A stretch of 64,000 nt of DNA from an uncultured Actinomycetota bacterium (GTDB lineage: Bacteria > Actinomycetota > Actinomycetes > CAVWCF01). Positions 24,236 to 41,293 of this stretch are shown piece after piece (within the stretch, counting starts at the first letter, position 1; the number at the start of each line of letters is the position of its first letter). The notes under the pieces are model-generated. The model searched no databases, was not told where the DNA came from, and was given only the letters and a program-made list of their open reading frames with translations. The stretch is from positions 192,001 to 256,000 of the forward strand of contig CAVWCF010000001.1 in the NCBI GenBank assembly GCA_963753435.1. The letters are read 5' to 3'. A program made the translations under genes and the position numbers.

Positions 24236-25565
24236 AGAGGCGGTGACGCAAGCAGCGCTGCCCGTGGTCGCCGTGGTCGGGCGTCCCAACGTGGGCAAGT
24301 CGACCTTGGTTAACCGACTCCTCGGACGTCGCGAAGCGGTAGTTCAGGACATTCCGGGCGTGACGCGCGACCGGGTCGCCTACGACGCGGAATGGTCCGG
24401 GCGCCGGTTCACGGTCGTGGACACCGGCGGCTGGGAACCCGACGCGCAGGGGATGGCCGCCCGCGTTGCGGCGCAGGCGGAGTTGGCCATGCTGTCGGCT
24501 GATGTGATCGTGCTGGTTGTCGACGCCACCGTTGGGGCCACCGACACCGAAGAAGCGGTCACTCGAGTGTTGCGGCGCTCTGGCGCGCCAGTACTGCTGG
24601 CCGCCAACAAGGTGGACGACTCTCGCACCGAATCAGATGCGGCGTCGCTTTGGTCATTGGGGCTGGGTCAACCGCACCCGGTGTCGGCACTGCACGGGCG
24701 TGGCAGCGGCGACCTGCTGGACGCGATCCTGGCGGCCTTCCCGGAGGTGGCCGCAATGCCGGAGCCGCTGGGTGGTCCGCGCCGGGTGGCGTTGTTGGGG
24801 CGGCCCAACGTGGGCAAGTCCTCGCTGCTGAACCGGCTGGCCGGTGAAGAGCGCGTAGTTGTGGACTCGGTTGCCGGCACGACAGTCGACCCGGTCGATG
24901 AGGTCGTGGAACTTGGCGGGGAGTCGTGGACCTTCGTCGACACCGCCGGGATCCGGCGTCGGGTGAAGGAGGCTTCCGGTCAGGAGTACTACGCGTCCTT
25001 GCGGACCAGGGCTGCGCTGGACAAGGCGGAGGTGGCGATCGTCCTGCTGGACGGGTCGCAGCCGCTGACGGAGCAGGACGTGCGGATCGTGCAGATGGTT
25101 GTGGACGCTGGCCGGGCGCTGGTGCTCGCAATCAACAAGTGGGACCTGTTGGACGAGGATCGGCGTGACCTGTTGGAGCGGGAGATGGAGCGGGAGCTGG
25201 CGCATGTGGCGTGGGCTCCGCGGGTCAACGTCTCTGCAAAGTCCGGACGTCACGTAGAGAAGCTGGTTCCCGCACTCCATGAGGCGCTGCAGGGCTGGGA
25301 CACTCGGGTTTCGACCGGCCGCCTGAACGCACTGATCGGGCAGGTAGTCGCCGCGCACCCGCACCCGGTCCGTGGCGGCAAACAGCCCAAGCTCTTGTTC
25401 GCTACCCAGGCGTCGACGCAGCCGCCGAACTTCGTGCTGTTCACCACCGGCTTCCTGGAAGCCGGCTACCGGCGGTTCCTGGAACGACGATTGCGCGAGG
25501 AGTTCGGCTTCCGCGGCACGCCGATGTTGCTCAGCATGAAAGTGCGGGCCAAGCGCAAGAACTAG
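24228..25565 (+). CDS. der: Ribosome biogenesis GTPase Der (EngA)
   Basis: Two GRPNVGKS P-loops, DTGG and DTAG, NKVD and NKWD, KH-like C-terminus. Confidence 0.99.
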
Positions 25566-25638
25566 GCGGGTTTCCGTCGGGAATCGCTTCGGCGTCGTTC
25601 GGGTAGCATCGGCGCGCTCTGCCGGTTGCGCGGGGCAC

Positions 25639-25712
<74 letters not shown>

Positions 25713-25916
25713 CGGTGTTCGTGCAGGCCATGGGCAGCCATGCCTAGTTCCGTCAATTCGTTGGCTCGAAAGTCGGGCCGCTCCTGCGCTTAGGACTTCT
25801 CTGGCTGCTCGGTCGGCGAGGAGTCCCGACAAGGCGACTTGCCCATGGATGCTTCCGTCAGGGCGTGTTGAGACAACATTGCGACGATGTTTTGACCCAA
25901 AGCAGTTGACATACGG

Positions 25917-25960
25917 TGTGACGCCGGTCACAAAAAGGGGAAAAGTTCTTCTGGTATTCT
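25917..25960 (+). promoter_or_regulatory. CRP-family box plus extended -10 promoter
   Basis: TGTGA-CGCCGG-TCACA at 25917-25932; TGg-TATTCT at 25952-25960. Confidence 0.75.
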
Positions 25961-25966
25961 TTCCGC

Positions 25967-26092
25967 ATGAGCACCGTCACCGCGCACCGTTGGTCCATCG
26001 AAACATCAGAAACCGCCTCCGGGATCCGCACGATAGGCAGCGTCCTAGGCCGCGCCTTCAATCTGTTCCTGCGCGCGCCCGCCAACTACTGA
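25967..26092 (+). CDS. Putative leaderless 41-aa small protein
   Basis: ATG 6 nt after TATTCT; MSTVTAHRWSIETSETASGIRTIGSVLGRAFNLFLRAPANY*; shorter than any ORF in the supplied track. Confidence 0.55.
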   Translation: MSTVTAHRWSIETSETASGIRTIGSVLGRAFNLFLRAPANY

Positions 26093-26230
26093 GGCGCCCG
26101 TGGCGAGTCCATCTGGTGGACTGGGCAACCTGGTCCCCTTGGACAGCCACTCGTCACTGAATCTCGCATGGCCGATTTCATCCTCGCGGGACCGTATGCG
26201 CCCGCCGCCACGGCAGCCAGAGCATTTCCC

Positions 26231-27868
26231 TCATTCGTTCTGACGTGCTCGGGAACCCTCCGGAACCACGCTGGGCAGTTCCTTGGTGAACGCCAGCGAC
26301 AGGAGTGCCAGCAGGGCCGCGGCCAGCAATCCCGCCTTCAGCGCCTGCAACTGGGATTGCTCGTAGTCCTCCACTAGGGCGTCGGCGGTCGGCTGATCGA
26401 GACCGGCCGACTCCACTGCGGCACGGACTTGATCGGAGTCGACGAAGTCCAGCCCCGACTGCACACTGACGCCGACCTCAGCGGAGATTTCCGCGCTGAT
26501 CCGCGGGTCCTCCTCTATCTGGGACACGAAAGTGCTGGTCAGTCCCGTCAAGACGATCGCACCAATCAGGGCGATGCCAAGGGAGGAGCCGAGCTGCTGG
26601 CCGGTGTACTGCAGTCCGCCCGCCTCGCTGCGGCCGGACGCGTCCACCGAGGACTGCACCACGTTGCCCAGTTGGGAAACTATGAGTCCCATCCCAACGC
26701 CCAGAATCGCCATGGACAACGCGAACCAGCCGCCCTTGAGAACCGGGTCGATCGTGGCCATGAGGATGAGCACGGCAGCGGCGGCAGTCACCAGGCCCGA
26801 GCGGACGATGCCTCGAACGCTGAACCGTGCCGAGAGCCGGGACCCGATGGCCGACGTGGCGAACATCGTTATTGAGATCGGCAGCATGCGGATGCCGGTG
26901 TCGAGGGCATTGAGACCAAGAACCAGTTGCAGATACAGGGGCACGACGAAGAAGACGCCCATGAGGATCAAGTTCTGGATGAACAGCCCCGACAGCCCCG
27001 ACCGCAGCATCGGGATTCGCATCAGGTCCAGGTGCACCAGGGGGTCGGTGCCAATCCGTTCCCGGTGGCGTTGCCAGACAGCGAACGCCCACAGCAGCAG
27101 CCCGCCACTGGCGATCACGAACAGAGTCGGGGAGAAGCCGAATAGCGTGAAGGGCACATCTTTCGGCGCCACCCAGCCCCAGGTGCTGGACTGCAGTACC
27201 CCGAGAACCACGACGCCCAGGCCCGAAGCCGACAGCGCCGAACCCACGTAGTCCAGGCGTGGCGCCGCACCGGCTCGCGGTGCGTCTGCGACAACCCTGG
27301 TCATGATGAGGATGAACGCGACCAAAAGGACTTCGCCCACGAAGACCACGCGCCAAGACAACTCCGTCGTGGCCCACCCGCCGACAATCGGTCCGATTGC
27401 GATTCCGGCCCCGGCGACCCCGCCGAGCACGGCGTAGGCGGCGAGCCGCTGCCGCCCCTCAAAGTTGCCGGCCACGAGAGCGGCCAGGGCCGGCAGCACC
27501 AGGGCGGCACCGATCCCTTCCAAGATCGACCAGCCGAGGGTCAGCACCTGCACTGTCGGAGCCACCGCGGTCAGCGCCGAGCCGGCGCCATAGATGAACA
27601 GCCCGACCACAAAAGCCCGGCGTCGGCCGATGATGTCGCCCACCTTGGCCCCAGTGAGGATGAACATCGCCATGGTCAGGCAGTACAGGGTGATGACCGC
27701 TTGGATCGTGGTGACAGTTGTGTCGAAGTCTTCCACCAGAGTGCTGATTGAGACGTTCATGACCGACTGGTCGAGGACCATGACGAACTGAGCCGTGGCG
27801 AGGGCGATCAACGGCGCCCAACCGACCCGCGAATCTGACTTCGTGCTGGGTATTTGGGCATCGGCCAT
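26231..27868 (-). CDS. MFS transporter, DHA2 (14-TM) type
   Basis: QFVMVLDQSVMNVSI, GKVGD-like motif A (GAKVGDIIGRRR), GPIVGGW..SWRVVF; leaderless ATG after TAGGGT. Confidence 0.92.
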   Translation of the reverse strand: MADAQIPSTKSDSRVGWAPLIALATAQFVMVLDQSVMNVSISTLVEDFDTTVTTIQAVITLYCLTMAMFILTGAKVGDIIGRRRAFVVGLFIYGAGSALTAVAPTVQVLTLGWSILEGIGAALVLPALAALVAGNFEGRQRLAAYAVLGGVAGAGIAIGPIVGGWATTELSWRVVFVGEVLLVAFILIMTRVVADAPRAGAAPRLDYVGSALSASGLGVVVLGVLQSSTWGWVAPKDVPFTLFGFSPTLFVIASGGLLLWAFAVWQRHRERIGTDPLVHLDLMRIPMLRSGLSGLFIQNLILMGVFFVVPLYLQLVLGLNALDTGIRMLPISITMFATSAIGSRLSARFSVRGIVRSGLVTAAAAVLILMATIDPVLKGGWFALSMAILGVGMGLIVSQLGNVVQSSVDASGRSEAGGLQYTGQQLGSSLGIALIGAIVLTGLTSTFVSQIEEDPRISAEISAEVGVSVQSGLDFVDSDQVRAAVESAGLDQPTADALVEDYEQSQLQALKAGLLAAALLALLSLAFTKELPSVVPEGSRARQNE

Positions 27869-41113: not shown

Positions 41114-41293
41114 TGACCCCGGGCGGGAGAGTTCCGTCGCCGCCAGCGGCGGGCGCCGAAGGAGCAACACCCCGAAACCTCTCAGGCACCCAGGACCGCC
41201 CGGGTGAGACACCTCTGGAAAGCGGCCTACGGGCCCGCCGACGGTGCAAGGGCGCACAGCCCGAAGCTCTCAGGCTCCGATGACAGAGGGGGC
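41114..41293 (+). ncRNA. Tandem glycine riboswitch
   Basis: Aptamer 1 GGAGAG...CGCCGAAGGAGCAA...AACCTCTCAGG; aptamer 2 CTCTGGAAAG...CGCCGACGGTGCAA...AAGCTCTCAGG...GACAGAG; upstream of gcvP; -10 TAGGCT at 41097. Confidence 0.93.

Follow-up and report, generated by a model that had tools for sequence, protein, structure and literature searches.

The question raised by this locus is whether a 41-codon open reading frame lying behind a perfect Crp/GlxR-type palindrome is a gene and, if it is, how it would be controlled and what its product might do. The locus lies in a window of 64,000 nucleotides, the whole stretch of DNA analyzed, within a 2.17-Mb genome of 68% G+C (G000) whose gene content is that of an actinomycete. 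It occupies the region between the tRNA-Pro(GGG) gene (25639-25713, plus strand) and a convergent MFS transporter gene (Pfam MFS_1; 26231-27868, minus strand) that ends at 26231; the two flanking genes serve here as context only. On the plus strand, the palindrome TGTGA-N6-TCACA (25917-25932) is followed by an A-rich spacer (25933-25947), an extended -10 block of the form TG-N-TATTCT (25948-25961) and the ORF itself (25967-26092). The -10 motif reads TGG-TATTCT at 25952-25960, its hexamer takes up 25955-25960, and the ATG at 25967 begins 6 nt past the hexamer and is the sole in-frame start, with no other ATG, GTG or TTG. Every string that a preliminary description of the locus had reported for the box, the extended -10, the ATG and the 41-codon ORF was found in its place.

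The length of the frame alone is no evidence of coding, because 44% of the ATGs in shuffled intergenic DNA open at least 41 codons. Seven non-identical relatives, all of 41 aa and with the same start and stop, are 54-98% identical where identity was measured. Three are variants of a protein called as a gene by JGI/IMG (90-98%), one at 54% was obtained in a full HMMER scan (E 5e-5 in 1.8 billion), and alignment searches contributed further relatives at 66% and 63% together with one more cluster member. Three of the four matches of the HMMER scan were rejected as long proteins aligned in 5-7 stretches, P0006 being a tandem repeat. In the alignment of the 41-aa family residues 3-12 are variable, and G-I-R, L-G-R-A-F, L-R-A-P-A and a final Y/F are kept. 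The expectation in the preliminary description that gene callers would miss the ORF did not hold in general, because the protein exists as a JGI/IMG gene call.

A contig from a sister species (L039), the lone related locus in a metagenome scan, is 88% identical in DNA over 2.1 kb. All four differences within its ORF are silent, one of them exchanging the stop codon TGA for TAA (p about 0.005 under neutrality). The preliminary description had proposed a small protein gene, to be judged by setting silent against protein-changing differences in relatives, and both the seven 41-aa relatives and the wholly silent changes in L039 bear it out; we regard the ORF as almost certainly protein-coding. Four DNA runs yielded near-identical strains with no change in the ORF, and two RNA runs gave 151-nt unstranded contigs at a depth of 2-3 over the spacer, the ORF and the MFS gene alike, which are uninformative on transcription. 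The MFS gene adjoins the small gene in L039 as it does in G000. A gene that we take to encode glutamate decarboxylase (L039:2129-3523) precedes the transporter in the sister species and has a 77%-identical copy in G000 at C1:1037909-1039102; in G000 the transporter instead adjoins a gene that we read as GTP-dependent PEP carboxykinase.

The small gene is single copy in G000 and its product belongs to no catalogued family that we searched, with no match in Pfam, NCBIfam or PHROGs and no PDB chain. Rfam gave no match at the small-gene locus, and no description of the 41-aa family was found in the open-access literature. Two unnamed clusters in the ESM Atlas, of 41 and 42 aa with 71 and 99 members and scores of 0.95 and 0.94 against the relative P0009, may be further kin of the family. 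Elsewhere in the window, a glycine riboswitch aptamer (Rfam RF00504) was seen at 41114-41208, where a single aptamer reaches the gathering score.

When 400 other genomes were searched by promoter pattern and nothing else, five matched, against one for a control pattern. One of the five, G001, belongs to the same family as G000 and to another genus, and it carries what appears to be the same unit. The box there is perfect and has C and G at the same inner positions, the -10 again stands 22 nt away, the 14 nt around the extended -10 are identical to those of G000, and an ATG comes 7 nt downstream. The G001 spacer equals that of G000 in length and shares 6 of its first 14 bases. The ORF that follows encodes a protein of 58 aa, in which an amphipathic helix is succeeded by an A-P-A-F-Y-stop ending, and hairpins lie after it. 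In the 60 bases that precede the box the two genomes agree at just 14, and the neighbors in G001 are SnoaL-like and PAP2-like genes, the MFS gene not being among them. Because the upstream sequence and the neighbors differ, the unit looks like a self-contained cassette; the differing neighbors also point to no partner. The preliminary description had tied the gene to the der-tRNA-Pro locus. This tie was not sustained: G001 carries the unit elsewhere, and at the der-tRNA-Pro locus of G001 and G002, where other genes follow the tRNA, the unit is absent. G002, which is 58% complete, gave no match in promoter, DNA or protein searches.

The homology between the G000 and G001 units is drawn from the promoter and the tail, because the similarity of the proteins alone is marginal. 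Aligning the 41-aa family with the G001 protein by hhalign gave a probability of 0.9%, which is not significant; the similarity score of the G001 protein was equalled by 4% of shuffles and by 114 of 4000 random ORFs, and the coding DNA of the G000 gene has no match in G001. The APAx[Y/F]-stop ending, on the other side of the ledger, was seen in none of 4000 small ORFs drawn at random from G000, and when a pattern running from the -10 to the tail was applied to 181 genomes, the ending was in frame in G000 and G001 only. The other matches to this pattern (180 genomes) were TetR-like genes or out of frame.

Among the 401 genomes covered by the searches, the small-protein family was thus found in two alone, which belong to one family known from metagenome assemblies; these genomes are a sample, and absence elsewhere is limited to them. 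A DNA search of 40 relatives with positions 25560-26260 as query returned tRNAs only, plus one 26-nt match. Protein and profile searches gave weak matches only, in 1 of 2 other genomes, 5 of 400, 2 of 60 and, beyond G001, 5 of 300; the loci inspected lacked a box and proved to be shadow frames or fragments of longer genes, one place in G048 having matched twice, and all were rejected. When the promoter pattern was relaxed, 9 of 250 genomes matched in addition to G001, all of them lacking a similar ORF. Viral contigs and species genomes contained no confirmed relative, and the lone match to the tail pattern was out of frame and behind a stop and was rejected. Our main claims concern G000, G001, L039 and the proteins listed; the unpublished genomes G008, G030, G032, G036 and G043 enter only through negative tallies, one rejected weak match and a 47-aa gene described below.

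The layout of the promoter was compared with the rest of G000. Among ATGs near the starts of long ORFs, a TANNNT hexamer stands 6 nt ahead in 49 of 1751 and 7 nt ahead in 31; a spacer of 8 was found for 10, and every remaining spacer from 0 to 19 for 0-6. TANNNT-N6-ATG is therefore the usual leaderless layout of this genome, since spacers of 6 and 7 dominate the counts, and the leaderless arrangement given in the preliminary description agrees with it. The small gene has its TANNNT 6 nt ahead of the start and no Shine-Dalgarno sequence at a working distance, and the same is true in G001 with 7 nt. A -35 element is indeed missing from the spacer, as had been described (best match 2/6), but its absence carries no weight, because 106 of 113 leaderless promoters in G000 match at 3/6 or less and are without one too. 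The spacer is otherwise out of the ordinary: the 22 nt between box and hexamer are 59% A+T against a mean of 29%, a value matched by 1 of 113 leaderless promoters, and a TG extension at this offset occurs in none of the 113 others (2-13 at offsets farther upstream). The A+T-rich spacer and the TG extension together suggest an unusual and probably strong core promoter. Across G000, leaderless promoters in front of long genes avoid a TG of the extended -10 type, and the promoter studied here is an outlier among them.

The box and promoter are also conserved in the sister species. Between G000 and L039 there are no changes in 67 nt covering the box and the -10, and 18 changes in 153 nt of flanking non-coding DNA (Fisher p 0.002, for a 67-nt window picked after seeing the data). 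The conservation of the box that the preliminary description had named as a check was found, the box being unchanged in L039 and perfect in G001, two loci in all. Upstream of the box are a TTGACA at 25906-25911 and a TANNNT hexamer (TACGGT, 25912-25917) that overlaps the first base of the box, both missed in the preliminary description. TACGGT, which directly adjoins the TTGACA, is a common -10 hexamer in G000, and L039 retains the pair whereas G001 lacks it. The hexamer at 25912-25917 could belong to a second promoter with its start inside the box, but this was rejected for want of a -35 and a ribosome-binding site and because G001 does not have it. A SigF or ECF promoter was likewise rejected, no matching -35 being seen by eye. 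The two short overlapping inverted repeats that had been described further upstream (25866-25878 and 25875-25891) are present, but they are probably outside the conserved unit, of which they form no part in G001; at least two such repeats arise in 6% of 2000 shuffles, and one arm base is altered in L039.

The reading that we tentatively prefer is that this is a Crp-activated leaderless gene whose product lies on the membrane surface as an amphipathic helix and adjusts a partner protein through its tail. Transcription would, very likely, run from a leaderless start at 25967 to a hairpin near 26155, giving a monocistronic RNA of about 190 nt. It is fairly likely that residues 19-36 would lie flat on the inner surface of the membrane, with Ile, Val, Leu and Phe pointing inward while three Arg lie at the head groups. 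The variable Ser/Thr-rich N-terminus would act as a spacer. Docking on a membrane-associated enzyme, transporter or protease would be the task of the APAx[Y/F]-COOH end, which would retune this partner when cAMP-Crp is active.

The protein itself offers several observations that bear on this proposal. The cationic amphipathic C-terminal helix of the preliminary description was found at residues 19-36 (26021-26074), with a net charge of +3 and a hydrophobic moment of 0.50-0.60; in all seven proteins tested the moment of this segment exceeded that of shuffles (p 0.002-0.011), and the hydrophobic periodicity of the family alignment peaks at 100 degrees. Structure prediction, which had been suggested as a check, agrees with it: AlphaFold gives a single helix over residues 3-36, confident in the middle only (pLDDT 88 at residues 21-30, mean 72, from a six-sequence alignment). 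The helix has a HeliQuest discriminant D of 1.46-1.56, which passes the lipid-binding threshold of D = 1.34. It is followed by the conserved tail (26075-26092), A-P-A-x-[Y/F]-stop, which is invariant in the alignment of the relatives apart from x and the choice of Y or F, and is shared by the G001 ORF. What is kept across genera is the amphipathic pattern and this ending, and the Ser/Thr-rich N-terminus varies by 17 residues. A proteasome HbYX tail was rejected since the aromatic residue here is last and not next to last.

An amphipathic helix could equally bind a soluble protein, and a soluble target is the nearest rival to the membrane reading. In that case the gene and promoter would be the same, and the helix would contact a metabolic enzyme, Crp or a protease adaptor in place of the membrane, after the manner of VcdP, SR1P and SpfP. 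The low overall hydrophobicity of these proteins fits this, especially for G001 (the best 19-residue Kyte-Doolittle mean is 0.94 for the window protein, 0.79-1.24 in the seven proteins and about 0 in G001), as does a tail whose invariance is more specific than lipid binding requires. Small proteins under Crp or CcpN control that have soluble targets are also known from excerpts of the literature (PMC10187061, PMC10730256, PMC8672173). The hydrophobic moment, the charge and the lipid-binding discriminant argue the other way, and so does the wide divergence of the helix residues between G000 and G001 with the amphipathic pattern retained. We consider a soluble partner somewhat unlikely.

For the membrane-helix reading, control by Crp is the next element. 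The Crp of G000 (L031) matches structures of M. tuberculosis Rv3676 with E 1e-82 and has a conserved recognition helix, two adenylate-cyclase domains are encoded in the genome, and Crp is also present in G001 and G002. The boxes of G000, L039 and G001 agree at 10 of 10 positions with TGTGA-N6-TCACA, which is given as the consensus of this Crp family in the excerpted source (PMC7739888); in the partial accounts available, Rv3676, GlxR and M. smegmatis Crp1 have the same consensus as the window box, and G000 has the orthologous regulator. The palindrome is very likely bound by a Crp of the Rv3676/GlxR type. Perfect boxes are more frequent in G000 than chance would give, with 3 observed against 0.13 expected from pentamer counts; the true background lies above 0.13, because the control spacers 2 and 12 also gave 2 and 1 matches, and the excess is genuine but smaller than apparent. 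Boxes with at most one mismatch in G000 were found at C5:40756, C1:424721 and C1:1657596, and the genes behind them are, on our reading, rpf-like, ssgA-like and rbpA-like.

A perfect box is no proof of regulation, as one at another small gene of G000 is not retained at the 14 other loci compared. That gene (G000:C1:1491807-1491950; L045:408-551) encodes a leaderless 47-aa hydrophobic small protein without a Pfam match, and its box lies at -60.5. It is far more widespread than the gene studied here: of 151 genomes from the class, 40 encode it, G008, G030 and G036 among them. A TANNNT lies at -12 or -13 in 13 of the 15 loci. In many cases it is divergent from what we read as dnaK and upstream of a gene presumed to be Fe-S oxidoreductase-like.

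The sign of control is a separate matter from the identity of the regulator. The preliminary description had assigned the site to class II geometry, and its center does lie at -42.5 from the ATG, which overshoots the E. coli class II optimum by 1 bp; the gap from core to -10 is 22 nt in both G000 and G001, against 21 for a site centered at -41.5, and the centers of -42.5 (G000) and -43.5 (G001) refer to predicted start sites. We infer activation because the spacing is fixed and the box leaves the -10 free, and activation in a class II-like fashion is likely. In the excerpts of the reports on actinobacterial Crp (PMC2844151, PMC7739888, PMC10187061), activating sites are of class I (-58.5, -65.5, -93.5) and a site at -37.5 represses; a site at -42.5/-43.5 over a leaderless small gene is not among the activating sites that those excerpts give. 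The site at -37.5 is that of M. tuberculosis whiB1, a class II position at which Crp represses and to which cAMP enhances binding only weakly (PMC2844151, in part), and the affinity of GlxR for DNA is described in an excerpt as rising 100-fold with cAMP (PMC10187061). We keep "cAMP-activated" as a proposal, because whiB1 is repressed with little effect of cAMP whereas GlxR is cAMP-dependent.

The main regulatory rival is repression by Rex. More broadly, the palindrome could be a repressor site, for Rex or for a repressing Crp, and the gene would then be on at high NADH or low cAMP. Rex is encoded in G000, its operator shares the TGTGA..TCACA core with the Crp box, and S. avermitilis Rex binds sites with three mismatches, one of its footprints spanning -50 to -22 (PMC5355995, in part). 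The box spans -50 to -35 relative to the predicted start and differs from the Rex consensus TTGTGAA-N4-TTCACAA at three positions in G000 and four in G001. An extended -10 with an A-rich spacer would suit a promoter able to fire alone, and AzuCR and Spot 42 are Crp-repressed in the partial accounts available. Crp is nevertheless the likelier reader, because of the Rex mismatches, because both half-sites, in G000 and G001 alike, have C/G at positions for which Rex favors A/T, and because G000 has better Rex sites that lie closer to the -10, those before rex and the atp-like operon being 6 and 8 nt from it as against 22. Exact conservation of the 22-nt gap also suits contact with an activator better than occlusion. 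Repression of either kind seems unlikely to us. Rex-type operators with 1-2 mismatches were noted in G000 at C1:732523, 1162152 and 1201501. We read them as preceding the atp-like operon, the nuo region and rex itself, which would match the Streptomyces Rex regulon.

The RNA that a Crp-activated promoter would yield has features of its own. The preliminary description had drawn two stem pairs after the stop; these share bases 26106-26108 and are mutually exclusive, and a single long imperfect hairpin at 26093-26155, directly 3' of the stop codon, folds best (z -3.5 on the plus strand, -1.1 on the minus strand). L039 has the same outer fold (z -1.6). Among the variants in related DNA, 26112, 26151 and 26157 are unpaired in the hairpin, and 26134 and 26137 rearrange its inner part. 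No classical terminator was found at the 3' end of the small gene, the hairpin having no U-tract; it is likely the 3' end of the transcript, as a terminator or a stabilizer. An attenuator leader peptide was rejected, the next gene being convergent. Within the ORF, the first 63 nt show less structure than recodings with synonymous codons do (z +2.6, reached by none of 113 leaderless genes) and the 3' half is ordinary (z 0.6). Rare A-ending codons are kept, and of the fourfold-degenerate sites 2 of 26 within the ORF differ between G000 and L039, compared with 121 of 326 for the MFS gene (p 0.002). The open 5' half and the constraint on silent sites may be read as selection for efficient leaderless initiation.

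The same constraint, codons and open 5' end would also fit a dual-function RNA, in which the transcript of about 190 nt encodes the peptide and in addition pairs with mRNAs by way of its 5' half, which is C-rich and single-stranded, as happens with AzuCR, Spot 42 and VcdRP. The openness is, however, confined to that half, as efficient leaderless initiation also needs; a patch of local recombination could account for the low divergence; and conservation of the coding DNA does not extend to G001, nor does the locus match Rfam. We think a dual function very unlikely. On the minus strand, TANNNT hexamers at 26191-26196 and 26030-26035 are possible antisense starts and are not beyond chance in this A+T-richer spacer; the former is unchanged in L039.

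A toxin-like role had been raised in the preliminary description, and a membrane-damaging peptide of the type I toxin-antitoxin kind would have a cationic amphipathic helix such as this one, with an antisense RNA that could begin from the minus-strand hexamers (starting at 26196 and 26035). A toxin is nonetheless most improbable, because two defining features of type I systems fail: a transmembrane segment is absent, the Kyte-Doolittle means given above falling short of one, and the 5' end is leaderless and open where a sequestered ribosome-binding site would be expected. The gene is also single copy with no match among viral contigs or PHROGs, and the hexamers are not beyond chance. That the locus yields a Crp-dependent RNA with no coding function, the ORF being incidental, is scarcely credible: frames of this length are common by chance and the silent sites are constrained, but length, frame, helix pattern and tail persist in relatives as distant as 54% identity, and the changes in L039 are all silent.

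We regard the small-protein family as real and lineage-restricted, with a conserved regulatory site, and we infer its function. The kind is already known, being AzuC/SpoVM-like, and the family itself is uncatalogued; the likeness is one of functional class, and membership by sequence is absent, no catalogued family having matched. AzuC of E. coli, according to an excerpt (PMC8915982), is a Crp-controlled protein with an amphipathic membrane-associated helix that modulates GlpD. The gene described here resembles it in being small, of limited distribution and probably under Crp control, and in having an amphipathic helix with a partner, the last being our presumption. AzuC differs, in the same excerpt, in being 28 aa long, Crp-repressed, furnished with a leader and connected with Hfq/ProQ, whereas the window family has 41-58 aa, is leaderless and has its box at an activating-type position. 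SpoVM of Bacillus subtilis, a short amphipathic surface helix that recruits or inhibits SpoIVA and FtsH, is in the part of the source available (PMC10730256) sigma-E-controlled, sporulation-specific and 26 aa long, in contrast to the Crp-type box and 41 aa here. SpfP (from Spot 42), VcdP (VcdRP) and SR1P (SR1) are small proteins under carbon-catabolite regulators that bind larger proteins; in the partial accounts available they come from dual-function RNAs, have soluble targets and are repressed by their regulators.

A Gly/Arg/aromatic amphipathic helix at the C-terminus is the means of membrane targeting in proteins of the MinD/FtsA type. The window helix, unlike these, makes up nearly the whole protein and has no folded domain attached.

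A bolder reading, which we consider quite unlikely, is that this is the first recognized Crp-activated small-protein family of actinobacteria, combining a membrane-anchored helix, a docking tail and an open 5' RNA that acts as an Hfq-independent regulator. The tail would then be a ligand for a membrane enzyme, a protease or Crp itself, and the family would be wider than sequence searches show. Were it true, the locus would represent an actinomycete counterpart of the enterobacterial AzuCR/Spot 42 layer, class II-like and with 22-nt spacing.

The reach of the preferred reading is limited by the two genomes that carry the unit and by Crp-controlled amphipathic small proteins being already known in enterobacteria. 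If it is right, an uncatalogued small-protein family would be added to the actinobacterial Crp regulon, with a natural example of a leaderless gene whose Crp site and extended -10 stand at a constant 22 nt from each other, and the helix together with the APAx[Y/F] tail would provide a defined handle for partner fishing.
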